64,000 bases of DNA from an uncultured bacterium (GCA_903824675.1 CAIJXV010000006.1:46695-110694), one strand, 5' to 3'; counted from the stretch's first letter, positions 6,094 through 50,613 are shown. Notes: generated from the letters alone by a model not told the origin. Numbers and translations: made by a program.

Positions 6094-6261
6094 TCGGGAC
6101 GCAGGAGGGTGAGTACAGCCGGGCGTATCGCACGGCTGATCTTTTCGCTTGAGGCGACGTTCCATTGAGATGCGTCGAAGGGGCGAAAATGGGCTCTTTG
6201 GGCTTGCTGGAGGGGGTGTTTTCTGGCATATTAAATAGCCCTTATTAACAACGAGGTTCCT

Positions 6262-14637: not shown

Positions 14638-15591
14638 ATGGATCGAATTCGTAATCTATTGATCCTGCGTGGCGGTGCTTTAGGCGATTTTATTCTGACG
14701 CTTCCGGTCGTGTCTGCCTTACACCGTCATTTGCCGGCCATCACCATCGATCTGGCGTCCGATCCACGGTTTGCAGAATTAGCCATCGGGTCAGGATGGG
14801 TGCGGAAGGTGCATTCGTTGGATGCCGCGCTCATGGCCCAGATGTATGTTCCCGATGAAGCGCGGAATCCCGCCCTGGCAGATAGTTGGCGCGGATATGA
14901 TGCGGCCCTCTGTTATCTGGAGGATCCCGATCAGACCATCGCACACACCCTGGACGATGCCGGGATCCGACGGCGCGTATTTGTTTCACCCCGAAAGATC
15001 TGTGGGCATGCCATCGATCATTTCATGGGGGGGCTATGCTCGCTTGGCCTGGAAATGATAGCGGACGATTCCCTGGTATTGAATCTGCAGCCCAAAGGGA
15101 CGCGGTCTGCCCTCACGGTCCGGGTATCTCCACAAAGGCCTTTTTTTGTGATTCACCCGGGGAGCGGGAGCGCCCGGAAAAACTGGCCGCTGGATCGGTT
15201 TGTCCGCTTGGCCGAACGAATCCGGAATGAGAGGGCCCTTCTCCCCGTATTTCTTTTGGGCGAAGCTGAAGCCGGATTTGAAAATATTTTAAAGAAAACA
15301 TTGCCCTCCGCCTTATGTCTGACGGAGTTGGGGCTGTCAGACGTGGCTGCGGTTTTGAAACAGGCGCAATTTTATGTCGGAAACGATTCGGGCATCACCC
15401 ATTTGTCGGCCTCCCTGGGCGTGCCCACCTGGGCCTTATTCGGACCGACTGATCCGGAACAATGGGCGCCCCGGGGACGGCAGGTATACGTGGTGCGGTG
15501 TTCCGGTAATGGACTTCATTCGATGGAGGATATGTCCGACGATGCCGTCTGGCGGGCGCTCAAAATTGGAGATGGTTGTCCCCGGTCGTGA
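14638..15591 (+). CDS. GT9-family glycosyltransferase (LPS heptosyltransferase-like)
   Basis: LLILRGGALGDFILTLPV N-terminus, plus the GNDSG and FGPTDP motifs typical of ADP-heptose:LPS heptosyltransferases. ATG at 14638 has GGGAGGA upstream; the track start was GTG at 14614. Confidence 0.65.
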   Translation: MDRIRNLLILRGGALGDFILTLPVVSALHRHLPAITIDLASDPRFAELAIGSGWVRKVHSLDAALMAQMYVPDEARNPALADSWRGYDAALCYLEDPDQTIAHTLDDAGIRRRVFVSPRKICGHAIDHFMGGLCSLGLEMIADDSLVLNLQPKGTRSALTVRVSPQRPFFVIHPGSGSARKNWPLDRFVRLAERIRNERALLPVFLLGEAEAGFENILKKTLPSALCLTELGLSDVAAVLKQAQFYVGNDSGITHLSASLGVPTWALFGPTDPEQWAPRGRQVYVVRCSGNGLHSMEDMSDDAVWRALKIGDGCPRS

Positions 15592-15774
15592 GAAATGGCG
15601 AAGGATCGCCTTGTCCAGTGGCCGTCTTGGCCGTATCTCCGCTAACACCCCACAGAAGTTTCAGCAAAACGGAATATTCATAAAATGCCTTTATCTTATG
15701 TGTTGAAAATGGCGATGTGTGCGGCGATGTGCATAACTGGTTTCTTGACAAACATCTCAAGATAACTGTATTTC

Positions 15775-16308
15775 TTGCTCTGTGAGTGTTATTTTTATGG
15801 GGGTGCCGTGTCGAATATTTCAATTTCTATTTCCCTGATAGAGGATCTTAGTCAGGCATTGCAGGGAGGGGTGCTTGCATCTGCGCCCGCAATTCGGCAA
15901 GTGGCCTCGGCTGAAAGGCGCTGGCGACCTGATTTTGGCGATATTTTCTGGGGAGTATTGGCACGGTTCAATCGTCATCAGAAACACTACGGGATGGTTG
16001 CGGACGATCATCTGGAATGCCCGCCAGTCCGGGTTCCTGTCCAGGGCGAACGTCCGGCTGTGGTCTTCGCTCCCATCACTTCGCTTCGGAATTCCAATCC
16101 CAAAACGATGGTTTTGCCTCCCGGCACCTTGCCGGCTAAAAAAACCGGTAAAAACACCCATGCCGAGGTCAATTCCTATCTCCTTCTGGCCTTGCGCATG
16201 CTCGTGGGTGTGAAAACCGTTACCTCGCAATTCGAACGGGTACGGCGGTTGCCCGATAATTGCATACAAGATGCGCGCCGTGTTCTCAAACGGGATACCC
16301 TCAAATGA
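15775..16308 (+). CDS. Possible small leading ORF of the island operon (hypothetical)
   Basis: Its TGA stop overlaps the ATG at 16305 of the next gene in an ATGA arrangement, suggesting translational coupling. No recognisable motif and the start is uncertain. It could be non-coding leader sequence. Confidence 0.25.
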   Translation: MLCECYFYGGAVSNISISISLIEDLSQALQGGVLASAPAIRQVASAERRWRPDFGDIFWGVLARFNRHQKHYGMVADDHLECPPVRVPVQGERPAVVFAPITSLRNSNPKTMVLPPGTLPAKKTGKNTHAEVNSYLLLALRMLVGVKTVTSQFERVRRLPDNCIQDARRVLKRDTLK

Positions 16309-17399
16309 CTCAGTCTGACGTCGAAACATCCCGGTCTCTGCCGATACGTGCTTGGTTAGAACGACTTATTGACCACGGCGAGGTTGATGAGGTCTTTTAT
16401 GGAGTTTTGATCGAACAGGTTGGGTATATGACCCGGACAACGGCTAGACATATCCGGACAGAAACCACTGAAGATCTGGTTTCGCCGGAAGATTTGGCCG
16501 GCGATTTCCTGCTTCACTTAAAAGCGGAAAACAAGCGCGAAATTCAAACTTTGTCCGGGCTAAAAAGGGAGTTCTCCAAGTTTTTGACCGACCGGAACGA
16601 TCCCGAATCGAAGGAGCTTTGGGAGATCATCAGCGATGCTTTGCACCAGGGAGGGCGTGAAGGGTGGGCTCGGCGCTTGGATGACTTGCATAGTGAAAAG
16701 AATCATAACCAGGCCGTTTGGACATCGGCTTTGCCGGGATGTGATCAAAAAACGTTGGATTTGGCCCAATTCGAACAGAGGGCAAAAAAGATTCCCTGCT
16801 TTTATCCCGGCCGGACAGCGGGACGAATTCTCCCTCCGTCTGATGCGGTTGAATTGATAAGGCGCCTTTTGAAAGAAGCCCAAGTTCCGATTGTATTTAG
16901 CATTCTCTTTAACGAAGCCCGACGCCATGTAGTATTTGGACTCAGATGGGCGGAGGAACTTGGGGAGGAAAGTGAGGCCGAAGATGGCGAAAAACCTCAA
17001 ATCCAACATGCAGATCGAAGTTGGGAGGTGGTGCAATGGGCCAGGGAAGAATCGGCGGAAAGGGGTGATCGGATTTGGTGTGCCATCCAAGCCCTGAAAA
17101 CTGAAAAAGTGCTTTGCCTTTATATACTTCCCAAGCATTTTCTGGGACAGAAACCGACTTTGTCCGGTATGGGCGATTTCCGCCGGACCAGTGAAAATAG
17201 TCTAGAAATCATGTCGATTCTTGCGCAAGAGCTTAAAGTGGAACGACTTAAATCTGATGCGGCACATCAACGGCCTGATGTTATTGACGAGCAAGACGAT
17301 GATTTTATCAAAGCGTGGACGGTAATGATTCACTTTGTAGCCGAACGGCTTTTGGTGAAATGTTCGGAAAAAGGGTTCAACCCGGCCTTATCATCATAA
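16260..17399 (+). CDS. Hypothetical protein (gene A of island operon); acidic patches, no recognisable domain
   Basis: Long ORF of intermediate GC. An alternative start at 16305 (MTQSDVETS) is coupled to the upstream ORF. Glu/Asp-rich segments EEESEAEDGE and DEQDDD. Confidence 0.6.
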   Translation: MHTRCAPCSQTGYPQMTQSDVETSRSLPIRAWLERLIDHGEVDEVFYGVLIEQVGYMTRTTARHIRTETTEDLVSPEDLAGDFLLHLKAENKREIQTLSGLKREFSKFLTDRNDPESKELWEIISDALHQGGREGWARRLDDLHSEKNHNQAVWTSALPGCDQKTLDLAQFEQRAKKIPCFYPGRTAGRILPPSDAVELIRRLLKEAQVPIVFSILFNEARRHVVFGLRWAEELGEESEAEDGEKPQIQHADRSWEVVQWAREESAERGDRIWCAIQALKTEKVLCLYILPKHFLGQKPTLSGMGDFRRTSENSLEIMSILAQELKVERLKSDAAHQRPDVIDEQDDDFIKAWTVMIHFVAERLLVKCSEKGFNPALSS

Positions 17400-17413
17400 C
17401 GGGGGGATTTGAC

Positions 17414-18343
17414 GTGAAAAGTCAGCCTATTCGGCAATTAGAAGGATTATTGAACAGGGTATTGCCGTCCAAAGGCACTCTGGAATCTGTCGAAAACATA
17501 CAAAACATTGGTCCCGGACAAATGTGGTCGACGAAAGCCATCTTGGATTATCCGATTCATTTTGGGGAGCATGAACTGTTTTGGGTCCTGGTAGTTCAAT
17601 CCCGAGTAATGACGCTGAATAAAGAAAGGGTCCATTTGGTTGCCCCACTTTTATCCGATCCGCATCTGGCGGGACCAGAGGATATCATTTTGCCGAAAGA
17701 AATCATGGGGCATCGGGTGGCATTGGCGTGGGGCAGTCGGATAACGGTATTGGAGAAAAGTCTGGACCGGTGTGAGGGTAAACTCCCTAAAAAGTGGTGC
17801 GATGTTGTGGCGCAACTATCCGCAAATGTGGATTTTCATGTTCTCCGGACCTCCGGCATTGAAATGGGATTTGATTATCTGGACAACCATGATATCCGAT
17901 TTGCCTATCATGAGAACTTGGTGGACCGATTGAGTTACCTGCAATCGCCAGTTATACAGGTTGTCTGGCATGAACAAGCGGATGTGATCCGCATGGACAA
18001 ATGGTTCTCCCGAATAGAGCGGGCGAAATGCCAGTCCTTGGCTGCGGCGACGGGAAGTGCTTTCGAAGAAAGTCTCTATTACCGGGTAGTCGGCAAAAAA
18101 CTGGTCATCAAGGTTGTGCTGGCAAGCGACTGGACCCACGTTCAACTGTTGATCCTGAATGAGAAGGGGGAACTCGCCCCTGAACTGGATGGGTGCCAAG
18201 TGGTCAATACGGAAGGCAAGGCTGTCGGAAAGCCCATCAATGATGCGCAGGTATTAATCGATCTAAACGAAATGCGGTGGGGATGGAGTCTGGTGGACAA
18301 AGATGAGACGAGCCGTAAAATCGAGTATCTGCCAAGCCCATGA
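17414..18343 (+). CDS. Hypothetical protein (gene B of island operon)
   Basis: GTG at 17414 preceded by a GGGGGG SD 7 nt upstream; the track's earlier ATG at 17315 would overlap gene A. The stop TGA overlaps the ATG of gene C (ATGA). Confidence 0.55.
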   Translation: MKSQPIRQLEGLLNRVLPSKGTLESVENIQNIGPGQMWSTKAILDYPIHFGEHELFWVLVVQSRVMTLNKERVHLVAPLLSDPHLAGPEDIILPKEIMGHRVALAWGSRITVLEKSLDRCEGKLPKKWCDVVAQLSANVDFHVLRTSGIEMGFDYLDNHDIRFAYHENLVDRLSYLQSPVIQVVWHEQADVIRMDKWFSRIERAKCQSLAAATGSAFEESLYYRVVGKKLVIKVVLASDWTHVQLLILNEKGELAPELDGCQVVNTEGKAVGKPINDAQVLIDLNEMRWGWSLVDKDETSRKIEYLPSP

Positions 18344-20400
18344 AATTCCCTCCCTTCAGTTATGCCGCTTTACACGAAGAATTACGACTCCACCCTGACT
18401 CCGTATCCGTTTTTACGACAATGGAACTGAAGCACTTGACGCGGATTCCCCCTATCGATCATTCACTTGCCGAGGTGCTAACCGCCGAGGCCATCTATCG
18501 GGAATCAATCAGTCGGTTCTCGGGTGAGTTTATGAGCGAGATCGAGCGTTTGTCGTGCGTGGATGATTATCAACGCATTAAAACAGCCTGGGGTGTAAAA
18601 GGCGAACCCAAATTGGAACATTTCGGGGACTGTCTGCGGGGCCTGGTGTCGGATCCGGTCGCACAGAGAGCCGGAGAACGCCTAGCCACCTTTTGGATGG
18701 CCGACGGGTTGATTCCCGTAGTTTGTAAGCGAGCCGGTGCTTGCGAAGCAATCCCCATCCCGTTTTGTTTACGGTTTGAGACAAGTGTGCACCCGGGAGC
18801 GATTGATTTGGCGGAATGTCCGATTCCGAAATGGGAGCAGGGAGTCCGGGTTTTACGCAAAGAACTGAAGGAACCGGGATTGGTCATTCAAGTATTGCAT
18901 GCGTTGGGACCGCGCGTGAACAACTTGCATGGAAACAGCTTCCAGTTACCGGTTTGTCTGGCGTATGCCCAGAAAAAGGGACGGGTGTCCGGTCGGGAAG
19001 TATTTCACTTTTTGGCCACTGGGGCGGTAAGTGCCGGGTGTATTCGCAAGGTCGACGCACTGGATGAAAAGTTGATCTTGGCGCGGAAACTGGGGCTTGT
19101 CTTTGTGGGTCCGGGGCTGGCGGAGGGCGAGGGCTTGTTCCCGATACAATCTGGGGCTCCATTGATTGCCGTTTGGTCCGCTTTAGGACAAAACGCATTG
19201 AGCGTTGGGCGCGTCAGGATTACGGGGCCCGCGTTAATGGACCTGATCCGGTGTTTGAGGGATGATTTGCATAATGGTGCGGTTTCATTGAAGGACGCAT
19301 CCCGAAAATGGGCTGTTTATACCCGGTATCTGAGCAAACTGGAGGCGGATTCGCCCTACCGCCAGGAAGCTCAACTGGAGCTGGTGCTTTTGAAAGGGGT
19401 AATTCAAACCCATTCAGGAAGTGCGTCCAAAGCTGTTCGCAGCCTGGCAAAGGCGTTTAAAACTGCGATCACATCAGGTGTTGATAATTTAAGCCTGATC
19501 AAGTTGATGGCCCATCAGATTGTCGCCTTAACCGACATCGGTCGATTTGAAGCAGCTGAGGTTTGGGGTTGTCGCGCCCGCCGAGAGTTGGGAAAAAAAT
19601 TCCGAGGGAAGGCGGAGGACCGTATCCGAGCGAAAATGACGCTAAATGGCGTATTGGGAGGGCAGGTGTTTCTGCAAAAAGGCTTACTGAAGTCTGAATA
19701 TGCGTCCCAAAGCCGAGTAATGTTGGTAAAGGCGCTGGAAGATGCTTGTCACCTACGGGAAACCCGAGAAATTCTGCGGGACAGGGTGCAACTCTATTTA
19801 TGGGAAGCTCTTTATAGGCCGGCCGATGCCCTATTGAATTATAGGGGGGTGGAGCAAGATTTATTAAAAGTGACTCCTGACGACCGATGGATGGCGCATC
19901 AATATCTGAAACGGCATCGCTGGCTGGCGGCCTATCGCCTGATTTTAAGCGGACTGAAAACGGAAGGACAACCTGAAGAATGGGATCTTCCGGAACCTAT
20001 GGTGGGGCCAGCCGGTTGGATTCGAGCGACGGCCTTGAAATATAGAGCCACTTGGCGAGCACGGTTGGGCGACTATGTCGGGGCCAAGACCGATTTTGAT
20101 GCGAGTCTTGGGCCTTGGACGCACATGATCGGCAAAAGGCGAATCATCATTTGCCGGGAGCCCTTGATTAGGTTCATTTCAGGCACCATTGCACATGAAG
20201 CGTGTCGATCCTTATCCGACTCAAATGCCAGGGCGAGCCGAGAATACCGAGATATTGCCGACATGCTATTCGAAGGGTGCATTCCAGCCCGACTAAAGGG
20301 ACCATTTTCGGCTCGACAATGGCAGGTAATGAATGCAAAAGAGTGGGTAAATCGGTCGCAGCCTGTTCGGCCGGATTTGCGCTGCCAAATAGTCTATTGA
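18340..20400 (+). CDS. Protein with Lon-like (S16) Ser-Lys protease domain, no ATPase motif, long helical C-terminal region
   Basis: Residues ~198-255, HGNSFQLPVCLAYA...GREVFHFLATGAVSAGCIRKVDALDEKLILARKLGLVFVGP, align with the Lon proteolytic core DGPSAG...[36 protein letters not shown]. Ser200 is at nt 18937-18939 and Lys244 at nt 19069-19071. No Walker A in the protein. 686 aa. Confidence 0.6.
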   Translation: MKFPPFSYAALHEELRLHPDSVSVFTTMELKHLTRIPPIDHSLAEVLTAEAIYRESISRFSGEFMSEIERLSCVDDYQRIKTAWGVKGEPKLEHFGDCLRGLVSDPVAQRAGERLATFWMADGLIPVVCKRAGACEAIPIPFCLRFETSVHPGAIDLAECPIPKWEQGVRVLRKELKEPGLVIQVLHALGPRVNNLHGNSFQLPVCLAYAQKKGRVSGREVFHFLATGAVSAGCIRKVDALDEKLILARKLGLVFVGPGLAEGEGLFPIQSGAPLIAVWSALGQNALSVGRVRITGPALMDLIRCLRDDLHNGAVSLKDASRKWAVYTRYLSKLEADSPYRQEAQLELVLLKGVIQTHSGSASKAVRSLAKAFKTAITSGVDNLSLIKLMAHQIVALTDIGRFEAAEVWGCRARRELGKKFRGKAEDRIRAKMTLNGVLGGQVFLQKGLLKSEYASQSRVMLVKALEDACHLRETREILRDRVQLYLWEALYRPADALLNYRGVEQDLLKVTPDDRWMAHQYLKRHRWLAAYRLILSGLKTEGQPEEWDLPEPMVGPAGWIRATALKYRATWRARLGDYVGAKTDFDASLGPWTHMIGKRRIIICREPLIRFISGTIAHEACRSLSDSNARASREYRDIADMLFEGCIPARLKGPFSARQWQVMNAKEWVNRSQPVRPDLRCQIVY

Positions 20401-20409
20401 GGTTCAGCG

Positions 20410-21255
20410 ATGAAAGATCAGTCCGATCCCAAGGTGCTGGTGCCCGAAAGTTTTCGATTAGCATCAGACTACATGTATGGAATTGAGATTGCGTTGCGAG
20501 AATTGATCATCGAAGTAATGGATGCAGATCCAAGCCATGGTCGACTATGGTATCTAAAGTTGGAACCTGCACGTGACGTAGTGAAAAAGATGCGAGAAGC
20601 GAGAACCGATCAACTTCGCAACCGGCATATCCAATTCATCGCCTATCACCCCATCTATTACACGGATTTTCCCGATTTGCGAAAATTGTTTGAAAGTAGA
20701 CTTGTCTGGCCTCGATTTGAGCGATATTTATGGGGAAAAGAAGCATTTCTTGGCGACTTGGAAAAACTTGAACCAATTCGGAATTCGATAGCCCACCATC
20801 GTCCGGTTCCACATTCAACGGTCGAAATTATTGCTCCTGTATGGAATATGCTAAAAAATCGACTGGGTGAAGAGAAGATAAAACTCTGGGTACAGAGGCC
20901 GACGGTTGTTGAAAATATTAGGGAGAAATTAAACCACATCAACCAAGAAATTCACAAAACATGGGAAGTGATCTCCCAGAAAGAGTGCCAACTGCCGGAT
21001 ATATTAGAAGTCCGAGACTGTGTAGCTGCTTGGTGGTTCACACGGGAGTACTTGCTGCCAGATAAGGAAGAAATACCGGAATTTGATAGTATTTTAAAAT
21101 ATTTCAATAAATTGTCGGAATATAATCAAAACATTCCCTTCCATGAACGAGGATACGTCATCAAGATTCGCAAATGGGTCGGCGAAAACAAAATTGACGA
21201 ACTTGTTACTAATGCCGAATCCGTAATGGTGGAGGCCCTTAATGGCTGGGGGTGA
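20410..21255 (+). CDS. HEPN-domain protein, Abi_2 (AbiD/AbiF)- or Swt1-like
   Basis: LEPIRNSIAHHRPV contains the Rx4HH HEPN RNase motif (R124, H129, H130; nt 20779-20799). 281 aa, similar in size to Abi_2 proteins. AGG-rich SD upstream. Confidence 0.6.
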   Translation: MKDQSDPKVLVPESFRLASDYMYGIEIALRELIIEVMDADPSHGRLWYLKLEPARDVVKKMREARTDQLRNRHIQFIAYHPIYYTDFPDLRKLFESRLVWPRFERYLWGKEAFLGDLEKLEPIRNSIAHHRPVPHSTVEIIAPVWNMLKNRLGEEKIKLWVQRPTVVENIREKLNHINQEIHKTWEVISQKECQLPDILEVRDCVAAWWFTREYLLPDKEEIPEFDSILKYFNKLSEYNQNIPFHERGYVIKIRKWVGENKIDELVTNAESVMVEALNGWG

Positions 21256-21258
21256 AAG

Positions 21259-24048
21259 ATGAATATTTCGGACTTTGAAAAAAACAATAATACAATAGAA
21301 AATGATTTAACAAGGGCAATTAAAGAAACCCCTAACCCCTTTAATCCACATTCGCCAGTTGAAGATCCCGAATTACTAGTCGGCAGGCAAGCGTTATTGC
21401 TGGAAATTGACATGCAGTTGAAAGAGTGTCATGAAACAAGACGTTTTCGACATGTCATTGTTTCAGGGGAGCGCGGATCAGGTAAAACCAGTCTTATGCA
21501 GGTGATTGCGCAAAAGTATTATAAGAAACAGTGTTTATGCCAAATTAAAATTGAATCCGACACGAGCCTGCGCGATCCGCTTTTGTTTCGGCAGATATTT
21601 CGCAAATTAATTGAAAGTCTTTTTAGTCAGACGTCGGAACGTTCGCGCGATATATCATCAATATTTCGCGGAAAGACTGATAAAGTATTTCAAAGAACCA
21701 TTAGTGATCTCGAAAAATATAGTCCCGGAATAAAGGACCAGGTTTTTGCCTTTCCAGAAATATACTTCGAAACCAAGGACATACAGGCAGATGCAATGTT
21801 TGAGATTAAAAAAGCCCTTAAAGCGGATATTGCCATTATCGCTGATAACTTGAATGTCCCACTTTTTATTCTGGTAGACGCTTTTGGAGGGGCCGAAACA
21901 AATGCTGAATTTATTTGCATTCTAGTGTCCCTATTTGAAAAGGTCAATAACGTTTGCCTTTTGACTATTGCTTCTGCTGAAACGATTCAGGTGTTGCACA
22001 ATAAATCAGAAACGCTCATTCGAACCGCAAAGAAATATGACATGCCTCCCTTGACGGCTGATGATATTCGCGCCTTATTTGTAAAAACTTTACTTCAAAA
22101 AGATTTATTTAGAGAATCCATTCAAAAAGCTTTGGCGACGACGAAATGGGATGTCGCCAGTTGTGTGGAATTTTCGCCGTTTTGGGGTGAGTTCAAGTAT
22201 CAAATAAAACCCGAATTAATCGCGCAATGTGCGCAGGGCAACCCATATCTTACAATGATGATGCTTTATGTTGCCTTCAAGAAAGCGAAGGCGACAGATA
22301 ACAAGGTAATTGCTTTTGATGCTGAGGTCTTAAAGGATGTTTTTGTTGAATTGCAATACGATCAGAAATATCAACCTTATCAAAAAACCTTTACGTGGAT
22401 CAAATCATTGGGTTCTCGTAAGCGACTTCTTTTAAGTTTTTTGCTGCAAATTAGGACGCCCATTAAACTCGAAGATCTTTTTGCATTTGAACTTTTGATT
22501 CACCATGAGGATTTTGTCGTCAGGAACGAACTTCTTACGGCATACAGAGATTTCTGCCGACAAGGTGCTATACGCGAGAATACGGACGGCACATTTAGTG
22601 TGATGCTGAATAGCATTGAATGCGCCTATTTGACCCTATTTCAAGCTAACGACTTGAATGATTTTCGATTTTATAAAAACTTGACTGATTTTGTTTCCTC
22701 GGAATTACTTGGCCAACTACTTCGCCCTAAGTCTTCGTCGCTGATAAGTCGAAGAACCCAGTTTGAGGAATTCATCGAATTGCTAGAACGTGAAGCCCAA
22801 TTTCACCCTGACTTTATCCCCCTCATTAGTAAAGTTAGATATAAAGATGCTCTAGATGTGCTGTCTATGGATATAGATCAATCTGGGAATTCCAATATTC
22901 CTTTGCACACTGCTTCTGGCCGTTGTGCAATCTTGGCGTTCCCTAGGTGGACAGAATCAGTAAACCATCCCAAATCAAATTATAAAGATATACCCTTTGC
23001 TCAGGCTCTCTCTCAGATTCGAAATTCGGCAGACTGCAAAAACTTAATGCGCAGTAATCTTTGGGGTTTAAAATGGTGCATCGAGTATGAACGCCTGGAA
23101 GATGAAGCTGGGGTTCGTTCGGAAATCCCGTGGCTTCTCCCTTTTTTGTATTTATCATTGCAGATGCCTCGCATTCCAGTTCTGACAATTAAAGCGAGCT
23201 TTTCAGAGCGTCGCATTGAAATCGTCGCGAGTTGGATGGCGGCTTTACAAGGTGAAGAATCAATAGAGGATTCCATTCAGCCTCGCCTTGAGCAGCTTAA
23301 GGCTAATGCACTGTTAGCCAGTGTGGAGTTGTCTTGCTCATGGGAATATTATGAACCATTGTATCTACATGATCTACCGGATTCATTTTATGAGATGTCA
23401 CTCTATCACCCAGAGTATGAGAAGTACCACAATAATTCAAAGCGGGAAGGCCCTTTTGTCAAGGAACAACTATACCATTTCGGGGCACTCCTGGCTGATT
23501 CGTGGGTTCATATCTGCGCACAACGAAAGTTTCGTGAGATAGAGATCTTCTTGACGCACTACTCAAGACTTATAATTCTTCCGGACGTCCAAAGATATCT
23601 TAGCTTTCAAGAATATGATAAGTCTTTGCTCACCTGTCAGATCGAGTTCTCATTAATTGTTGCGGGTCGGTATGACTTGGCGACTGAACTTATTTCTGTC
23701 TTGTTGCCACATTTCAAGGATCCCGTGTTTTTGGCTCTAACACATTATGGGCTAGCATTAATTGCATTGTGCCAAAGCAAATTCGATGTCGTAGTTTCGG
23801 AATTAGCTGAAATCCGCTGTCTTATTTCTTTGCACGCTAATGATTTTAAGCGATTCACTGAGGCCGTTTCAGCTCATGACTTCGCCAAATATTCGTCCGC
23901 CAAAGAAGGTTGTTTCAGCACATATTTCTTTATTCCTCTTCCTAAGGTCGAAAACGGCGAGATCGTTTTTGCTATTTCTAATGCCGCGGACTTCACGGCC
24001 GTTTGTGATTCGGTCGATACGGCAGTTAGAAGGAAGCCAGCTCGATAA
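21259..24048 (+). CDS. STAND / AAA_16-type P-loop NTPase with ~650 aa helical C-terminal (sensor-like) region
   Basis: ELLVGRQALLLEIDMQL...HVIVSGERGSGKTSLMQ is an AAA_16-style N-terminus with Walker A at aa 70-77. The Walker B-like motif is VPLFILVDAFGG. 929 aa, conspicuously AT-rich coding sequence. Confidence 0.7.
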   Translation: MNISDFEKNNNTIENDLTRAIKETPNPFNPHSPVEDPELLVGRQALLLEIDMQLKECHETRRFRHVIVSGERGSGKTSLMQVIAQKYYKKQCLCQIKIESDTSLRDPLLFRQIFRKLIESLFSQTSERSRDISSIFRGKTDKVFQRTISDLEKYSPGIKDQVFAFPEIYFETKDIQADAMFEIKKALKADIAIIADNLNVPLFILVDAFGGAETNAEFICILVSLFEKVNNVCLLTIASAETIQVLHNKSETLIRTAKKYDMPPLTADDIRALFVKTLLQKDLFRESIQKALATTKWDVASCVEFSPFWGEFKYQIKPELIAQCAQGNPYLTMMMLYVAFKKAKATDNKVIAFDAEVLKDVFVELQYDQKYQPYQKTFTWIKSLGSRKRLLLSFLLQIRTPIKLEDLFAFELLIHHEDFVVRNELLTAYRDFCRQGAIRENTDGTFSVMLNSIECAYLTLFQANDLNDFRFYKNLTDFVSSELLGQLLRPKSSSLISRRTQFEEFIELLEREAQFHPDFIPLISKVRYKDALDVLSMDIDQSGNSNIPLHTASGRCAILAFPRWTESVNHPKSNYKDIPFAQALSQIRNSADCKNLMRSNLWGLKWCIEYERLEDEAGVRSEIPWLLPFLYLSLQMPRIPVLTIKASFSERRIEIVASWMAALQGEESIEDSIQPRLEQLKANALLASVELSCSWEYYEPLYLHDLPDSFYEMSLYHPEYEKYHNNSKREGPFVKEQLYHFGALLADSWVHICAQRKFREIEIFLTHYSRLIILPDVQRYLSFQEYDKSLLTCQIEFSLIVAGRYDLATELISVLLPHFKDPVFLALTHYGLALIALCQSKFDVVVSELAEIRCLISLHANDFKRFTEAVSAHDFAKYSSAKEGCFSTYFFIPLPKVENGEIVFAISNAADFTAVCDSVDTAVRRKPAR

Positions 24049-24197
24049 GGGGCTCCGTATTGGCCTCGCTGGCCCTTTGATTGTTCGGGATATGATTCTC
24101 CTTCTCCGCCAACTTTCTTGAATGGTGCTAATGTGATATACACAATTAGCATACATGGAGACGGCGACAGTAAACCCATTGTGCCACACTGATGGAA

Positions 24198-26336
24198 TTA
24201 CGAATAATTGAATGGCAATAAACGGGCGATGTCGCTGGCCGACGAAATATCCGAACCTTTGAGGATATCTGAAAACTGGTCTATCCCGCCCCATGCTTTC
24301 AGGTACGATGCAAATGGCGTGGACTGTGCGATGAGGCTTTCTGTCCAAGACAGGCATTCCTGGAAGTGTTTTGCATGCGATTGATTGTCTCCGCGAATCT
24401 TGTTGATGACGGTGATCAATCCCAATTGGGATAAACCAATGGTTTGCACCGTAAAGTGTAACTTCTTGGATATGCTGACACCTTGAGCCAAGATCTGAGT
24501 AGCAGATTCATATTGTTGGGCTTGTAAAAACAAATACCCGATCCACTTGCAGAGATGTTCGCATGGATGATCTTCGAATATGCGGGTCTTCCACGTATCC
24601 CAAATGGCTGCCGTCATGTTTTTGTCAATAGGGATGACGTCAGCGGCCACTGCGTCGCAATGGGCCGAAGCGATTCGAAGATAATTGATCGCATTGAATG
24701 GGGAGAGATTCGGGGTTGTCATGATTTCAGGTAGTCTCGAAACTAAATCTGCCGGAGTTGCAACAGGATTATTCCCTGAATGCCTGTTCATTTCAGCGCA
24801 GGCGCGGTTGAGATCGTCCGATTGCCAGGCCAGGGTTGCCAGATAGTTTGCCGACATTGAATAATATGAAATACCAGAGGGGAAATGTTTGATGCTTTTT
24901 TCGAAATATGCGCGAGCCATGTCTCCCCAGGCGGGATCCGTCCGCGCTAGAAAAGCGCAGGCTTGGCCCAGTGATCCTTGCATTTGGCCCAGAAGTTCAT
25001 CAGGTTCATCCGCTGGCACTTCGGCTTCGCGGCGGTCGACATCATCGCTGAACGTGGTTAGCACCTCTTCGAATCGGTAATCATTGAAAAGATAATTGAG
25101 ATTTCGGTTTCGGATTTCCAGTAAACGTTCTTTTCGCGTGTTGTGAGTTCCGGGTAGTAAATTCATCTGTTGTTGAAGCAATGTTGTCAGGCGGGTTTCA
25201 ATGTCTTTTTGCGGATTAACGTTGCCTTGGTGATTATGGCAGGCGGCAAGATCACTCAGACCATCTGCCAGATAATTTGCCCAAACACGTTGATTTTCGA
25301 TGGAACCCTTCGCCCTCAGGTTGGCCTCGGCGATGTCGGTCAATTGATGAAGGAGTTTCTTTGCACCATCCAGATTTCCGGGTTCACGAGTGCGGCTAGC
25401 GATGAGAAAGCGGGTATAGGCGAGTAATGCGGATGTTTCGCGCATGAGTATCTGACTGTCGTCTTCGCGTTTTAGAGCCTGGATCAAGCGGGAATAATCG
25501 GGATGCCCTTCTGTAGTCGGTAAATAACGCCGCAAATAATCGGCGGTCGTTGCGTACTGTTTGTTCTCCAAAAGGCGCGCGACTTCGTGATCGTAATGCC
25601 GGCGATAGTCGCCAAACATGAATTCATCGGGATTAGTTCGCTCGACTATTGTCCCGTCTGGTGTTTTTTTGCCGCCGCGCAGAAGACAGCATACGAAGTC
25701 CGCTGCGATGAGGCCTGGATTCCGATCCCCAATACCCCACCGTAATAATAATCGATTTTCGGCATTCAATCTTCTGGTGAATGAGATGGCTGGCGAGTCG
25801 CCAGAAAGGATCTGGTCTTTGATATAGTCCAATAGGCGAGGCATGTAGTCGGGATAGTTTGAGTTGATGGTTTCTGCGATGGTTCGTTGTGCAACCATTA
25901 TTTCCACAGAATCAGCATTTGGGCATCGCGTGAAGAGTGTTTCCAGAGCCTTTCGCGTAGCGGCAACCAAATTCAAGACATAAGTGGCCTGCGGAGAAGT
26001 CTCAAATCGCTTGCCGGTATTTCTTGATGCGAAAAAAAAAGCACTTGAACCGCAGATGCCTGTAAAAACGGCATTTGTGAAGGCTTCGAGATCCCGCCTT
26101 GACACTGGGCCGGCGACTCGGAGGTGGCCTTCTAACAACTTGCCGCAATGATAATGATCGGGATAGATGAATTTAATGCGGGAATTTGAGTTAAAAGCTG
26201 AAAGTTGGTCGACATGCAATGCCTTCCACGCCTGATCATCAAGGGTGCTACAGATGCCCCCTACAAGAGAAGATGCCTTTCGAGTGATCCCTTCATCAAA
26301 GGAGCCGCTCTCGTCTATGAAAATGAAATATTTCAC
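24198..26336 (-). CDS. DUF3800 N-terminal domain protein with long TPR-like helical C-terminus
   Basis: The N-terminus MKYFIFIDESGSFD matches the characteristic DUF3800 start (M.Y..IDESG). 712 aa, AT-richer than flanking genes, convergent with the STAND gene. Confidence 0.55.
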   Translation of the reverse strand: MKYFIFIDESGSFDEGITRKASSLVGGICSTLDDQAWKALHVDQLSAFNSNSRIKFIYPDHYHCGKLLEGHLRVAGPVSRRDLEAFTNAVFTGICGSSAFFFASRNTGKRFETSPQATYVLNLVAATRKALETLFTRCPNADSVEIMVAQRTIAETINSNYPDYMPRLLDYIKDQILSGDSPAISFTRRLNAENRLLLRWGIGDRNPGLIAADFVCCLLRGGKKTPDGTIVERTNPDEFMFGDYRRHYDHEVARLLENKQYATTADYLRRYLPTTEGHPDYSRLIQALKREDDSQILMRETSALLAYTRFLIASRTREPGNLDGAKKLLHQLTDIAEANLRAKGSIENQRVWANYLADGLSDLAACHNHQGNVNPQKDIETRLTTLLQQQMNLLPGTHNTRKERLLEIRNRNLNYLFNDYRFEEVLTTFSDDVDRREAEVPADEPDELLGQMQGSLGQACAFLARTDPAWGDMARAYFEKSIKHFPSGISYYSMSANYLATLAWQSDDLNRACAEMNRHSGNNPVATPADLVSRLPEIMTTPNLSPFNAINYLRIASAHCDAVAADVIPIDKNMTAAIWDTWKTRIFEDHPCEHLCKWIGYLFLQAQQYESATQILAQGVSISKKLHFTVQTIGLSQLGLITVINKIRGDNQSHAKHFQECLSWTESLIAQSTPFASYLKAWGGIDQFSDILKGSDISSASDIARLLPFNYS

Positions 26337-26609
26337 GGATTAAACACCTTATATCTTTGTTAGTTACTGATATTGCGGAATTCCCCTTCCCAGCGCAAGT
26401 TCGTTCTTTGAACCCTCTATACAACGGGACGAATTTCCAAGGAGGATTATTTGGGCAATTTCATCGGAAAAGTTGTTAGACGTCGGCTTCCAGTAATTTG
26501 CAACGTCTGCGATTGAATTCTAGCTACAAATGAAGATTTACCTGATGAAAACGATTTTAGGCCTTGGTTTCTGGTTCGGGTTGGTGGCGTTGTTGGTTTG
26601 GGAGGAACT

Positions 26610-28862
26610 GTGAAAAACGTATCTTCATATCGAGAAATACTGATCAATAAGACATGCCTGACCCGCGACCAATCGGCGATGATCGGGGCTTTGTCTCAAT
26701 TTTTTGATTCTGATCAAAGCCGGGTCTTTCTTCTCAAGGGTTATGCCGGAACGGGGAAAACCTATATCCTCCGGCAGATCGCCGAAGCCCTGTCGGTCGC
26801 GAAACTGCCGTTCTGTCTGCTGACCCCCACGGGGCGTGCGGCGCGTATCCTGGGTAAACGCACCGGCTTCCCCGCGCGGACCATTCATAGCCTGATGTAT
26901 GCCATGAACCAGGTACGGGAATATGAAAAAGATGAGGAGCGCTTTCAACTCCACTTCGAATTGTCCGATCCCAGTGGGATCGATAGCCGGATGGTTTTTC
27001 TGGTGGATGAGTCGTCCCTGATTGGCGATCGGGAAGGTGAACAGGAATTCTTGCGGTTTGGGTCGGGTCGCTTGCTCAAGGATTTTATTGATTATACGCG
27101 GGTGGGAGTGTCAGGGCTGGAAACGCGGATCGTATTTGCGGGGGATCCGGCCCAATTGCCGCCGGTGAATGATAACATTTCGCCGGCATTGTCGTCCGAA
27201 TATTTGAAGAAGACGCACAATTTGGTGGCCCAAACAGCGGAATTAACCGAGGTGGTGCGGCAGAAGGGTGGAAGTCCGGTTCTGCGCGTGGCTACGGAAT
27301 TGCGCAATAGTCTAGCGAATGGCCGGGTTAACAAGCTGGCGGTACCGGAGGAACCACCGGCCATCCGGTCAATCCAGCCCGCGGACGCCTCGAAATTGAT
27401 CGCGGAGGCATGTCGGGTGGATGCGATGGCGGAGGAGGTGCTGGTGACCTACAGCAATGAACTGGCGTTGAAATACAACCAGGCGGTGCGCGGTCATCTG
27501 TATGGGAATGAACAGGCTTCGGTACGGGTGGGGGACCGGGTGATGGTGAACACCAACAATCCGTGTTGGGGCCTGATGAACGGTGATTTTGCGGCGTTGC
27601 TAGGTGTCGCGCCTGAGCCCGAGATCCGTCAGGTTGCAGTTCGGGGGCAGGACGTCCAGGCGCTCATCTTCCGACGGGTGACGGCGGGTTGGCTGAATGC
27701 GGAGAACCAGCCGGTGCGACTGGAATGCTTGGTGATGGAAAATCTGCTGGATTCGCGCGAGCGGGATTTGACCCGGCCGGAAATGATGGCGCTCTACGTG
27801 GATTTCAAGAATCGGAATCCAGATCTGAAGCCACACACGCGCGATTTTGAGACGGCGCTACGGGCAGATGAGTATTTCAACGCGTTACGGGTGAAATATG
27901 GTTATGCGGTGACCTGCCACAAGGCGCAGGGTGGGGAGTGGGACCGGGTGATCGTGGACTTTCGGACCGGGGGAGGGTGGTCAAATCCCGCGTATTTTCG
28001 CTGGTGCTATACGGCTATAACGCGGGCCCGGAGTGAATTGCTGACGATCAATGCGCCGCAGTTTGTCCATTCCTGGGTGGGAATTCGGCGGGTGGGGGTG
28101 GGGAAAGGGGAGGGGAAGTTGTTGGTTGCTGCGGTGTTGGTTGATAGCGGGGAGGATGAAGGGATGGAGCGGAAGCCAAAGTGCTCGGTGGATGAAGCGA
28201 GCGGTGAGATCAGTGCGGGAACGCCCGGCTGTACCGGGGAACAACAAGATGAAGACAAGGCCGGCTGGCCGGGGGTCAAGTGGGCAGAGGGACATGAGCC
28301 GTTGAAACTTAAAGCCAATTGCTTTGCGGCGATGTTGCGGGCACAGGGTTTCGAGGTGGGTGTGCTGGAGCATGGCAACTATTTTGAACGGTACACAATT
28401 ATGGACGGCGCGAGACCGATCAAAATCCAGGTCTATTACGATGGAAGGATGCGATTCCGTGTACCCCAGCCGATGCCCCGCGGCAAGGTTTCGGTGGATG
28501 ATCCGGCTTTTAAGAAAATCGCAGCGTTATTCCTGTCGGCGATCCCCGAGGATGGCGGAATGGCTGAGGAAGGGGCCAAACCCCAAGCGGTTGAGTTGCG
28601 GGCAAAACTGGAGGAATTGCGGGCGCAGGGAGTGGATGTGTTGCGGCTGGATAGCGGGGAATATGTGGATCGGGTGACCTTGCGTCGGGAAACGTCGGTG
28701 GCTGAGGTGGATTTTTATCATGATCGCAAAGGGCGTTATACATCCTGGCAGATCATGCCGACCCGCGATCCTGAATTTCGGGGATGGTTGACCGGCCGGA
28801 TCGAGGATTTACTGATGACGCCGGAACAAAGTGCCGTGCAAGGTGTGGATTTACTGGAATGA
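26610..28862 (+). CDS. RecD/TraA-like SF1B DNA helicase (AAA_30 + UvrD_C_2) with ~270 aa C-terminal extension
   Basis: Walker A LLKGYAGTGKTY, Walker B FLVDESSLIG, motif FAGDPAQLPPV, and VTCHKAQGGEWDRVIV. Start uncertain (GTG at 26610 with GGAGG upstream; the track used TTG at 26598). Confidence 0.8.
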   Translation: MKNVSSYREILINKTCLTRDQSAMIGALSQFFDSDQSRVFLLKGYAGTGKTYILRQIAEALSVAKLPFCLLTPTGRAARILGKRTGFPARTIHSLMYAMNQVREYEKDEERFQLHFELSDPSGIDSRMVFLVDESSLIGDREGEQEFLRFGSGRLLKDFIDYTRVGVSGLETRIVFAGDPAQLPPVNDNISPALSSEYLKKTHNLVAQTAELTEVVRQKGGSPVLRVATELRNSLANGRVNKLAVPEEPPAIRSIQPADASKLIAEACRVDAMAEEVLVTYSNELALKYNQAVRGHLYGNEQASVRVGDRVMVNTNNPCWGLMNGDFAALLGVAPEPEIRQVAVRGQDVQALIFRRVTAGWLNAENQPVRLECLVMENLLDSRERDLTRPEMMALYVDFKNRNPDLKPHTRDFETALRADEYFNALRVKYGYAVTCHKAQGGEWDRVIVDFRTGGGWSNPAYFRWCYTAITRARSELLTINAPQFVHSWVGIRRVGVGKGEGKLLVAAVLVDSGEDEGMERKPKCSVDEASGEISAGTPGCTGEQQDEDKAGWPGVKWAEGHEPLKLKANCFAAMLRAQGFEVGVLEHGNYFERYTIMDGARPIKIQVYYDGRMRFRVPQPMPRGKVSVDDPAFKKIAALFLSAIPEDGGMAEEGAKPQAVELRAKLEELRAQGVDVLRLDSGEYVDRVTLRRETSVAEVDFYHDRKGRYTSWQIMPTRDPEFRGWLTGRIEDLLMTPEQSAVQGVDLLE

Positions 28863-28876
28863 CGGGATGATGAGCG

Positions 28877-30802
28877 ATGAACGAGGTAAAAACCATATTT
28901 CAGATGCGCCGTGAGGGACGATTGGCTGAAGCCCTTGAAATGGCTCGAACCTTTTGCGTCGCGAACCCGGCGGATTCCTGGGGTGTGAAGGCGCTGGCCT
29001 GGGTTCTGCGCGACCTTATTCTCGGTTGCCTGAAAGCGAAGGATCGGTCCGGTGCAACGGATTTATATCTGGAATTCGCACAATTACCCATTGGGGAAGA
29101 TGATATCGTCTTGGTCCAGACGGCCGATTGGCTGAAGAGTGCCGTGGACGATCCGGTGCGGCCGCTGTTGGACCAGGCAAAGCAATCTCAGGAAGCGGGC
29201 GATTTGGGTGCAAGTCTCGCGATTCTGCGGGATGTGGTTAGGCAGTATCCGCAATCGGAGCAGGCCCGGTCAGCGTTGGGGTGGGCGATTTACCGGGTCT
29301 TACACGCGATGGGACGGGAAGAGCATCCTGACCGACAGGCGGTTCTATCCTATTTGCGGGAATATCGAGCATTGTTTCCCCAACCCAAACCAGGCACGTT
29401 ACACTCGGCGATTCTGAATGCCGCCACCAAGCTGAGCGATGACTTGCCGCAATTTCCCCGTTTCTTTTTGTGGTGGGGTCCGGATAACTTTCAGACGGAG
29501 GATGCCCGGCCATTTTGCCCAAAGGATTCAGATCAGACATTTCCGAGCCTGGTTGAAAAAACGATCAAGGCGCTGTATCGCACCTGTAAAGGGCTTGAGG
29601 ACCTGGAAGTCGTGGGGCGGTGTGCTGATTTTGTAAAACTCTGGTTGCCGCGGTTTCCTGAGCAAGAATGGTTTGGGTATTATTACGGCCGGATGCTTAT
29701 TTTCGCGGGGCGGCTGGAGGAGGCGCGGGGGTACTTGATGCCGATCATTCGCAAGAAGCAGTCGGAATTCTGGGCTTGGGCGGCACTGGCCGACACCTTT
29801 GGGGAAGCGGCTCATGAAGAGCGGGTGACGTGTCTCTGTCAGGCGGCCCGGTGCCCTATTCATGACGAGTCCTTCAAAGTTGGGGTCCACACGGCGCTGG
29901 CTGAATTGCTGGCCCGGATGAATAAGAAGTCCGAAGCCCGTTGGGAACTCCAGACGGTGGTGAAGATCCGCGCCGAGAAGTGGTGGAAAATAACATCCGA
30001 AATTCAGGCGATGCAGGCAGCTGATTGGGCGGTGGGTGAGCCGGCGGATGACGGGAATCAGTCCTTATACGAGGAGTATGGGGCTCGGGCCTCATCCATT
30101 TTATGCGAAGGGTTGCCGTGGGAAAATGCCATCGTATTGGAAGTGTCAGAGGCCCGACCGTCTGATGGGCCGGAGCGGCGAGCCGTGCCGCCACTGGTGA
30201 TGATTGGATTAGGGAAAGGACCGCGTTTGACGACGCTCCGATTAAAACAGAATTTTTCGAGGGCAACGCGTGACGCACGGGTGGGGATGCCGGTGCGGAT
30301 CCGGCAAGATCAGGCGATGGAACACCCGTCCGTGATGGCGTTCGAATCGCGGGTCGGTACGGATTGGGATCTGCTTCCCGAACGGGCAGGGATCGTATTG
30401 TCGAATTCGGATGAGCGAGGGCTGACGATCATTTATCTCGGAGGCGATGAAGTAGTTTTTCTTTACCATGATCGGCTGCCGGAAGTCCAGGCCTATGAAG
30501 TGGGTGAATTTGTGAAAGTGCGGGTGATTTGGAATGAGCGGTCCGCTCGATTCAAGTGGCTGACCGTGGCTCTGGATTTGACTCCCTCGCCGGTGGCATG
30601 GTGCCGTGAGTTTGCGGACTCGGTTCGCCTGTCGGCCAACGGGGGGTTTGGCTTTGCGGGGGATGTATTTATCCAGCCCGGCTTGGTCAGCGAACAGGGG
30701 GTGACGGATGGATGCCAGGTGCGGGGAAGAGCGATTTTGCGCAAGAAACCGAACCGGGGCGAGTTGGGTTGGCAGGCGGTGACTGTGGCGGTGAAAGCGT
30801 AA
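28877..30802 (+). CDS. Large helical-repeat (TPR-like) protein with C-terminal beta-rich (OB-like?) region, unknown function
   Basis: 641 aa ORF starting 14 nt after the helicase stop. The N-terminal 400 aa are predicted helical repeats. No catalytic motif recognised. Confidence 0.5.
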   Translation: MNEVKTIFQMRREGRLAEALEMARTFCVANPADSWGVKALAWVLRDLILGCLKAKDRSGATDLYLEFAQLPIGEDDIVLVQTADWLKSAVDDPVRPLLDQAKQSQEAGDLGASLAILRDVVRQYPQSEQARSALGWAIYRVLHAMGREEHPDRQAVLSYLREYRALFPQPKPGTLHSAILNAATKLSDDLPQFPRFFLWWGPDNFQTEDARPFCPKDSDQTFPSLVEKTIKALYRTCKGLEDLEVVGRCADFVKLWLPRFPEQEWFGYYYGRMLIFAGRLEEARGYLMPIIRKKQSEFWAWAALADTFGEAAHEERVTCLCQAARCPIHDESFKVGVHTALAELLARMNKKSEARWELQTVVKIRAEKWWKITSEIQAMQAADWAVGEPADDGNQSLYEEYGARASSILCEGLPWENAIVLEVSEARPSDGPERRAVPPLVMIGLGKGPRLTTLRLKQNFSRATRDARVGMPVRIRQDQAMEHPSVMAFESRVGTDWDLLPERAGIVLSNSDERGLTIIYLGGDEVVFLYHDRLPEVQAYEVGEFVKVRVIWNERSARFKWLTVALDLTPSPVAWCREFADSVRLSANGGFGFAGDVFIQPGLVSEQGVTDGCQVRGRAILRKKPNRGELGWQAVTVAVKA

Positions 30803-50538: not shown

Positions 50539-50613
50539 GCGCCCATCGTCTATCGGTCAGGACACTAGGTTTTCATCCTAGTAAGCCGGGTTCGACTCCC
50601 GGTGGGCGCGCCA
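50539..50613 (+). tRNA. tRNA-Glu (anticodon UUC)
   Basis: Cloverleaf: 7-bp acceptor stem GCGCCCA/TGGGCGC, D-arm GTCTATCGGTCAGGACA, anticodon stem CTAGG/CCTAG with loop TTTTCAT (anticodon TTC), T-arm CCGGGTTCGACTCCCGG, and a 3' CCA. Confidence 0.85.

Follow-up and report, generated by a model that had tools for sequence, protein, structure and literature searches.

A predicted Lon-type Ser-Lys peptidase that lacks an ATPase module, carries a helical-repeat domain and is encoded beside an obligate partner gene in an uncultured bacterium

Bacterial immunity has recently been recognised to include a layer of proteolytic signalling, represented by CalpL, Craspase, SAVED-CHAT and the protease heads of Avs proteins. 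In the CalpL system, sensor-driven oligomerisation activates an N-terminal Lon domain, which cleaves CalpT and thereby sets the sigma factor CalpS free (PMC11417357). Here we describe a gene, C, whose product combines a predicted Lon-fold protease domain with a helical-repeat domain. It lies in a 64,000-nt stretch of DNA from an uncultured bacterium (GCA_903824675.1 CAIJXV010000006.1:46695-110694, one strand; “the window” hereafter means this whole stretch), among genes that we call g0, A, B, D, E and F (Table 1). Family-level sequence profiles and a predicted structure together confirmed a Lon-type Ser-Lys peptidase domain in C, with the two residues of the dyad in place and no ATPase module. 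On balance, we lean towards reading C as an ATP-independent, signal-gated protease of an undescribed conflict system, analogous in its likely working to CalpL or TPR-CHAT.

C belongs to a family that is, judged from the profile collections, unannotated, being covered by neither Pfam nor PADLOC. A word-indexed protein search returned one relative of C and almost none for its upstream neighbor B. An exhaustive HMMER scan of 1.84 billion cluster representatives, with the family clustered at 50% identity, recovered 242 relatives of C at E <= 1e-3 and 171 at E <= 1e-10. These are mostly 640-700 aa long and alike in layout, and metagenomes are the source of most of them, with named sources including Victivallales, Verrucomicrobia and Desulfobacterium. 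(Proteins and related loci are cited below by their P and L numbers.) The nearest relative in the first search, P0002 (475 aa; L001 571-2610), proved to be the front portion of a full-length homologue broken by a frameshift or an assembly error, as a tblastn alignment of C continues across 634-2553. In the window, the ATG of C overlaps the stop codon of B (ATGA). The public gene call for C, P0001, starts at M28 and gives 659 aa; we preferred the 686-aa start because homologues align from residue 7 onward, with C residues 7-30 matching conserved columns.

The evidence for a Lon domain is weak when drawn from the C sequence alone and clear at the family level. As a single sequence, C did not match Pfam Lon_C at E <= 1; the sole Pfam match of its N-terminal part was Birna_VP4 (residues 194-262, E = 0.1), and four PADLOC models (SAVED-Lon, CARF-Lon and CRISPR-Lon) matched residues 194-258 at E 0.002-0.04. 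A family profile built from a 90-sequence alignment, by comparison, matched PDB entries of Lon proteases at E 2e-5 to 1e-3, including Meiothermus LonA, M. jannaschii Lon, human LONP1 and A. fulgidus LonB, and it also matched CalpL (1.6e-4) and the E. coli Lon P-domain (0.046). The Lon kinship that a first-pass annotation of this DNA had proposed was not borne out by the Lon_C profile for C itself, and was borne out once the family was used as the query. A Pfam scan of 46 family N-domains gave ChlI in 7 members (best 7e-5), Birna_VP4 in 7 (best 2e-3) and Lon_C in 1 (0.097), all of them Lon-fold models and all below curated thresholds. The family is therefore a Lon relative that lies outside Pfam coverage.

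The catalytic motifs were found as originally read, i.e., G198-N-S200, A226-T227-G228 and D242-E-K244. In every PDB Lon alignment of the family profile, GxS fell on GPS, TG on MTG and K244 on the second K of KEK, the same register in which residues 198-255 had initially been aligned with the Lon catalytic region (GNS/GPS, ATG/MTG, DEK/KEK). Within the 90-sequence alignment, hardly any variation is seen at G198, S200, L203, A208 and G228, and conservation is also strong at T227 and K244. Counted over the ~135 representatives that cover the site, Ser200 is kept in 134/135. Lys244 is present at the aligned column in 118/135, and the remaining 17, which are divergent, have it one residue earlier, so that a Lys is found in 135/135. 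The Thr227 position holds Thr or Ser in 140/141 representatives. The early claim that both dyad residues are preserved agrees with these counts, and we predict Ser200 as the nucleophile, Lys244 as the general base and Thr227 as a supporting residue. The first reading was also right about the missing motor: a pattern scan found no Walker A/B motif in C, and no AAA Pfam model matched it. The pattern occurred in only 2/90 relatives, at unrelated positions, i.e., as chance matches.

Structure prediction gave the same assignment. An AlphaFold2 model of C residues 1-305, built on a 46-sequence alignment, reached a predicted local distance difference test score (pLDDT) of 89.7 and a predicted template modelling score (pTM) of 0.89. 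The top 50 Foldseek matches in the PDB were all Lon-fold domains (RadA, LonA, LonB, LONP1, ComM), with E from 3.6e-5, and no incompatibility of the predicted fold with Lon P-domains was seen. Structural comparison values were highest for ComM (14.5), BsLonBA (14.2), CalpL (13.9), RadA (13.3) and MtaLonC (13.2), followed by the E. coli Lon P-domain (12.6), birnavirus VP4 (10.3-11.1) and the BrxL C-terminal domain (10.4), with the first non-Lon fold at 5.9. Against viral structures, C gave weak VP4 matches only. Birnavirus VP4 is part of a viral polyprotein and excises itself; it works without an unfoldase and acts on specific exposed sites.

Two of the best structural matches raise the question of whether the domain is active. 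In RadA/Sms and ComM, the Lon-like domain is joined to a recombination ATPase or helicase and has no dyad, and the domain of C might likewise be a catalytically silent module for oligomerisation or nucleic-acid handling. We consider this highly improbable. The dyad is conserved in the C family even though the catalysis-dead RadA and ComM rank among its top structural matches, which argues for selection on catalysis. Ser200, Thr227 and Lys244 are essentially invariant among the ~135 representatives, which would be unexpected of a purely structural domain, and the family profile aligns best with active Lon and with CalpL, dyad on dyad.

The Lon-fold domain is flanked by helical domains on both sides. 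The N-terminal one has conserved positions E50, R54, W/F56 and L57 within a GExLxRxWLY motif. The C-terminal half is predicted to be helical, and the corresponding half of the family profile gave weak TPR-type matches (a designed helical repeat at 1.5e-9, IFIT1 at 0.015 and a TPR sensor at 0.016), in keeping with the long C-terminal helical repeats of the first-pass annotation, which we delimit to a domain of ~390 aa. Pfam TPR models did not match C itself. Conserved polar positions in this domain (N357-H358-x-G360, D399, G440-G-Q442, R533 and K567-Y568) exceed the needs of a generic repeat scaffold.

These features set C beside several described proteases and apart from each of them. With canonical Lon (LonA, LonB, LONP1; MEROPS S16), C shares the proteolytic fold, the register of the Ser-Lys dyad and the Thr of MTG; unlike them, it has no AAA+ module or Walker motifs, stays below the Pfam Lon_C threshold and has other flanking domains. 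With CalpL, it shares the overall plan: a Lon-fold Ser-Lys protease domain at the N-terminus, no AAA+ motor, a C-terminal candidate sensor domain and dedicated partner genes. In contrast to CalpL, the putative sensor is a helical repeat instead of SAVED, no CRISPR or cyclase genes lie nearby, and there is an additional, DUF3800-headed paralogue, F. Neither a SAVED nor a CARF domain was found in C, as the PADLOC SAVED-Lon and CARF-Lon models cover its Lon core only. BrxL of BREX type I has an AAA+ domain and a BREX operon around it, and C is less similar to BrxL than to Lon or CalpL. TPR-CHAT (Csx29 of the type III-E Craspase) resembles C in joining a repeat scaffold to a binding-triggered protease that cuts a dedicated partner (PMC11417357); it differs in that its protease is a caspase-like CHAT domain, its TPR comes first (the order is reversed) and it is activated by a CRISPR effector complex. 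No cas genes were found among the annotated neighbors of the loci examined, and no BREX genes either. What is new here is a sensor-coupled, ATP-independent Lon-fold protease with new partners, which lacks the defining features of Lon, CalpL and BrxL. In the searchable literature, we found no account of a Lon-fold protease partnered by TPR, STAND or DUF3800 proteins.

The most constant of these partners is B. We compared the window with 12 other loci carrying a C-family gene, using local profiles of B, D, E, F, g0 and A. In 12/12 loci, a B-family hidden Markov model matched the open reading frame (ORF) directly upstream of the C-family gene. B keeps this place where the Lon module forms one protein with a 1544-aa STAND nucleoside triphosphatase (NTPase; L017) or with a UvrD helicase (L018), and in P0006, P0034, P0041 and P0037 B and C make up a single protein. 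B is thus a conserved, obligate genetic partner of C. No Pfam or PDB relative of B was found. L008 has, besides the usual B upstream, a second ORF resembling the B N-domain (5967-6731, E 2e-7) immediately after its C-family gene.

We propose the following course of events for C. The helical-repeat domain would be the part that senses or assembles, a role that would fall to the STAND NTPase with WD40 repeats in fused variants. Binding or oligomerisation, set off by a trigger that is probably a partner protein or a molecule from the invader, would turn the Lon domain on. The Lon domain would then cut a partner at a limited, specific site, with B as the first candidate, followed by F or the tail of C itself. 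The cut would release or activate a response, for which the possible outputs in the window are F and, in addition, the locally inserted D (HEPN) and E (STAND).

The Lon module is also found outside the repeat-domain architecture. The N-terminal helical domain accompanies the Lon domain in STAND fusions, in which profile positions 1-300 are matched: this module (profile ~1-300) heads proteins of 1260-1900 aa with a NACHT/NPHP3_N/AAA_16 NTPase (P0095, P0096, P0116, P0119), two of which, P0095 and P0116, also have WD40 repeats. GxS, TG and K are kept in all STAND fusions. The N-terminal slot of bacterial NLR-like receptors is the position of the effector domain, occupied by nucleases and proteases (PMC13581612). 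Going by domain order, STAND NTPase proteins can carry the Lon module in place of their N-terminal effector, and the STAND NTPase and the repeat domain are interchangeable. In this placement, the module resembles the protease heads of STAND/NLR-like proteins (Avs, bNACHT, Apaf-1-like); those described so far are caspase-like or trypsin-like, unlike the Lon-fold head, and the window C itself is without an NTPase. We found no description of a Lon-fold head on an NLR-like receptor in the literature searched.

The same fusions bear on another possibility, i.e., that killing or arrest is the work of the Lon domain itself, which, once activated, would degrade host or phage proteins broadly. Its presence in the N-terminal effector slot of four STAND proteins (P0095, P0096, P0116, P0119), with the dyad kept, fits this idea. 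Against it, CalpL, a Lon-fold protease that likewise has no unfoldase, acts on specific exposed sites (PMC11417357); the strict linkage of C to B, together with the B-C fusions, points to a dedicated protein partner; and the cassette already holds other effector-like proteins, namely F and, in the window, D. We regard broad degradation by C as unlikely.

Upstream of B, the first two genes of the operon vary between loci. In the window, the stop of g0 overlaps the start of A (ATGA, 16305-16308). The g0 position is taken by a gene of 156-211 aa in L004, L005, L011, L017 and L018, and those five genes form one family. Seven loci were examined at the A position (L004, L005, L006, L008, L009, L017, L018), and each had a gene of 275-514 aa there. 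A genes fall into a short family (L006, L008, L009, L017, L018) and a long type (L004, L005, L011), and the long genes could not be linked to the short family. The window A had no Pfam, PADLOC, NCBIfam or PDB match. Both L017 and L018, with their STAND NTPase and UvrD helicase fusions of the Lon module, retain g0-A-B. Short A proteins share a conserved stretch, L-S/N-x-R-E-R/K ... A-G-x-K-K-S-V-L, that resembles sigma region 4 or a LuxR-type helix-turn-helix (HTH).

These observations lead to a second way of placing the cassette close to CalpL, in which it would be a transcription switch of the CalpL/CalpT/CalpS type, with A as a sigma or HTH regulator, B as its inhibitor and C as the protease that frees it. 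The A-B-C order and the obligate B-C pair do resemble the logic of a sigma factor, an anti-sigma factor and a protease (PMC11417357), and the sigma region 4-like stretch of short A aligned by hhalign in register with RpoE region 4.2. That alignment was non-significant, however (probability 0.3%, E 0.19), and searches of the PDB with A profiles were empty, with no sigma factor found. The window A is, in addition, unrelated in sequence to the short A family. B was likewise tried as a MazF/CalpT-like protein, prompted by a pattern resembling ‘RPVYVLVL...LVAPF’, and this was rejected at the sequence level (hhalign probability 0.3% against three MazF/Kid/EndoA sequences); B has no similarity to any PDB chain, CalpT entries included. 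For B and A, no similarity to CalpT or CalpS was detected, nor any to MazF or sigma proteins in PDB, Pfam and hhalign comparisons, and we find a switch of this type distinctly unlikely. Because the profile comparisons of A and B with MazF/CalpT and sigma factors were non-significant, the analogy of C with CalpL, as we draw it, is one of logic and not of membership.

The second companion of C is F, which in the window converges on g0-A-B-C-D-E. Homologues of F, with 28-42% identity over the full length, adjoin C in L004, L005, L006, L011, L012 and L016, and in four of these (L004, L005, L011, L012) F follows C directly on the same strand. F is thus a frequent partner, counted as adjacent to C in 7 loci. 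Pfam DUF3800 (PF12686) matched 6/10 F N-domains below threshold, with a best E of 2e-4, and left the window F unmatched; D8, E9, G11 and D213 are invariant in the F N-domains. The F repeat domain gave sub-threshold Pfam TPR matches in 2/4 members scanned. The helical domains of C (340-618) and F (351-634) aligned over 245 columns with an hhalign probability of 89% (E 2.3e-6), corresponding to homologous stretches of the window at 19357-20193 (C) and 24435-25286 on the minus strand (F) that have NHxG and G(S/T)LGQ-type motifs in common. Because the helical domains are homologous in this profile-profile comparison, C and F are, at the level of sequence, paralogous scaffolds bearing different predicted catalytic heads.

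An RNase H fold has been predicted for DUF3800, and a sub-branch of Cas12a2 has TPR-DUF3800 proteins beside it, at times accompanied by another TPR protein and a UvrD helicase (PMC10910872). F, with its DUF3800-like head and repeats, resembles these proteins, as does the setting, in that one C variant is fused to UvrD. The resemblance of F is by domain description, with DUF3800 sub-threshold, and F differs from the Cas12a2-linked case in that no Cas genes are present here. Rfam detected no RNA family near the DUF3800-like gene (15400-27000). In L013, an IS21-type element (rve transposase and IstB; 127-2512) lies immediately upstream of the F homologue and could explain the absence of C from that locus.

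C and F both end in conserved aromatic C-terminal tails. The C tail (window 20374-20397) reads [ND]PQ[LR]x[FY]xY-COOH, with the terminal Tyr in 84/90 members, and the F tail (24201-24218, minus strand) reads LPFxY[AS]-COOH in 4/4. Such tails suggest that the free C-termini of C and F are recognised, e.g., by the repeat domain or the active-site cleft; docking of the tails into either of these is speculative.

The genes downstream of C in the window invite yet another reading. C was initially proposed as a possible effector-activation module together with its HEPN neighbor, in which it might activate the adjacent D (or A or B) by cleavage. Genes g0, A, B, C, D and E lie on the same strand with boundaries that overlap or leave gaps of 3-9 nt (9 nt between C and D and 3 nt between D and E), so that C, D and E are tightly packed. 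D is a plausible HEPN protein judged from its R124-NSIA-H129 (Rx4H) motif, a match to PADLOC PDC-M34B (E 3e-10) and a Pfam Abi_2 match below threshold (E 0.004). E matched Pfam AAA_16 (3e-7), BrxC_BrxD and NACHT. On the other side, homologues of D or E were absent from all other loci searched, including all 12 with a C-family gene. The place directly after C is taken by F in L004, L005, L011 and L012, and a SLFN-AlbA_2 gene stands at or near the place of D-E in L001 and L008. Base composition sets the pair apart as well: the GC content is 0.55-0.57 in host genes and in the downstream genes G and H, 0.49-0.53 in g0-A-B-C and F and 0.41-0.43 in D and E, i.e., the island is lower than the flanking host DNA and D-E lower again. 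Because of the missing homologues and the distinct composition, D-E looks like a locus-specific two-gene module, independently acquired and inserted between C and F. The proposed functional pairing of C with D was not supported, the conserved partners being B and F, and we judge a Lon-HEPN activation module quite improbable, though C may cut D in this one locus.

Several points weigh against reading C as a signal-gated protease of a conflict system. The protease activity of C is predicted from sequence and modelling, its substrate and trigger are putative, and a defence role of the cassette is suggested by its neighborhood, the conserved cassette proteins matching no PADLOC model. No relative of C was found in the phage or plasmid collections searched, and E. 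coli genomes contained nothing matching the cassette DNA (window 15700-26400). A model of the whole of C, built on a 2-sequence alignment, had a pLDDT of 41, too low to place the Lon and repeat domains relative to each other. Neither A nor B has recognisable relatives outside the cassette, and a MazF/CalpT-like B and a sigma-like A were not supported by profile comparison. The window g0 has no detectable similarity to the g0 family of five loci, and the window A matches neither the short nor the long A type. F is not obligatory, because F is found without C (L014, L015) and C without F (L008, L009).

We nevertheless lean, as stated, towards a signal-gated protease. Taken further, g0-A-B-C(+F) may form an undescribed immune or conflict system with two paralogous sensor scaffolds, one with a Lon head (C) and one with a DUF3800 head (F). 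C, held with its obligate B, would fire a proteolysis that unleashes a nuclease-type head or cargo, and the Lon module would also have been recruited as a STAND effector head. This fuller picture is possible, and we offer it tentatively. With its own sensor, its partner B and its companion F, the family would extend the ATP-independent Lon-fold signalling proteases by a second class, one independent of CRISPR, and would add a Lon-fold head to the NLR-like receptor repertoire. Annotation pipelines currently miss the C family (242 clusters at 50% identity) because it is absent from Pfam and PADLOC. With clear catalytic residues (S200, K244) and defined partner genes, the family is directly testable.

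Table 1 Features of the cassette and its surroundings. Coordinates are window positions, except for the short A genes, which are numbered within the locus named.
Feature	Coordinates	Strand	Description
Gene g0	15808..16308	+	166 aa (ORF open from 15775); first operon gene; called on source contig
Gene A	16305..17399	+	364 aa; positional equivalent of A genes elsewhere; gene call
Gene B	17360..18343	+	327 aa (ORF open from 17315); obligate partner of the Lon-like protease
Gene C	18340..20400	+	686 aa; helical N-domain, Lon-fold Ser-Lys peptidase domain and helical-repeat domain; no ATPase
C, N-terminal helical domain	18340..18699	+	Residues 1-120; AlphaFold2 secondary structure
C, Lon protease-fold domain	18703..19209	+	Residues 122-290
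C, Ser200 codon	18937..18939	+	Predicted nucleophile (G198-x-S200); aligned on the Lon GPS Ser; translation checked
C, Thr227 codon	19018..19020	+	A-T-G motif; equivalent of the Thr in Lon MTGE
C, Lys244 codon	19069..19071	+	Predicted general base; aligned on the second Lys of Lon KEK
C, helical-repeat (TPR-like) domain	19225..20397	+	Residues 296-686, ~390 aa; family-specific
Gene D	20410..21255	+	281 aa, HEPN-like; locus-specific cargo; GC 0.43
Gene E	21259..24048	+	929 aa, STAND-type P-loop NTPase; Walker A GERGSGKT at residue 70; GC 0.41
Gene F	24198..26336	-	712 aa; DUF3800-like head and helical-repeat domain paralogous to that of C
Gene G (TOTE)	26598-28862	+	RecD/PIF1-like helicase; PF22721 TBP-TOTE 1.7e-20; PDC-M16A 9e-197
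Gene H (TOTE)	28877-30802	+	TPR protein; DUF7017 5e-39; S1CSD-TOTE-2 7e-16
Short A gene, L006	7384-8223		Carries the HTH-like stretch
Short A gene, L009	9159-10004		Carries the HTH-like stretch
Short A gene, L008	2073-2900		Carries the HTH-like stretch
Short A gene, L018	5131-6030		Carries the HTH-like stretch
Short A gene, L017	6036-6875		Carries the HTH-like stretch

The cassette lies among defence genes, in the window and in other loci. Just past F in the window, G and H make up a complete TOTE conflict system, and a homologous TOTE pair lies in L018 (12108-15839), 1.6 kb downstream of the UvrD-Lon-TPR gene. The presence of TOTE beside the Lon cassette could reflect island co-location or a functional link; the GC content of G/H is host-like (0.57), unlike that of the cassette. 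Elsewhere, neighbors include a TIR gene (L005), large proteins with C-terminal AAA_16/ATPase_2 P-loop domains (L004, L011) and HEPN-NTase and kinase genes (L009), and further C-family loci have a PD-(D/E)XK nuclease beside an AAA_5 ATPase, and a deaminase.

Promoter and terminator scans gave counts no higher than chance. The sole Rfam match in the 64-kb window was a tRNA gene at 50539-50610 (+).

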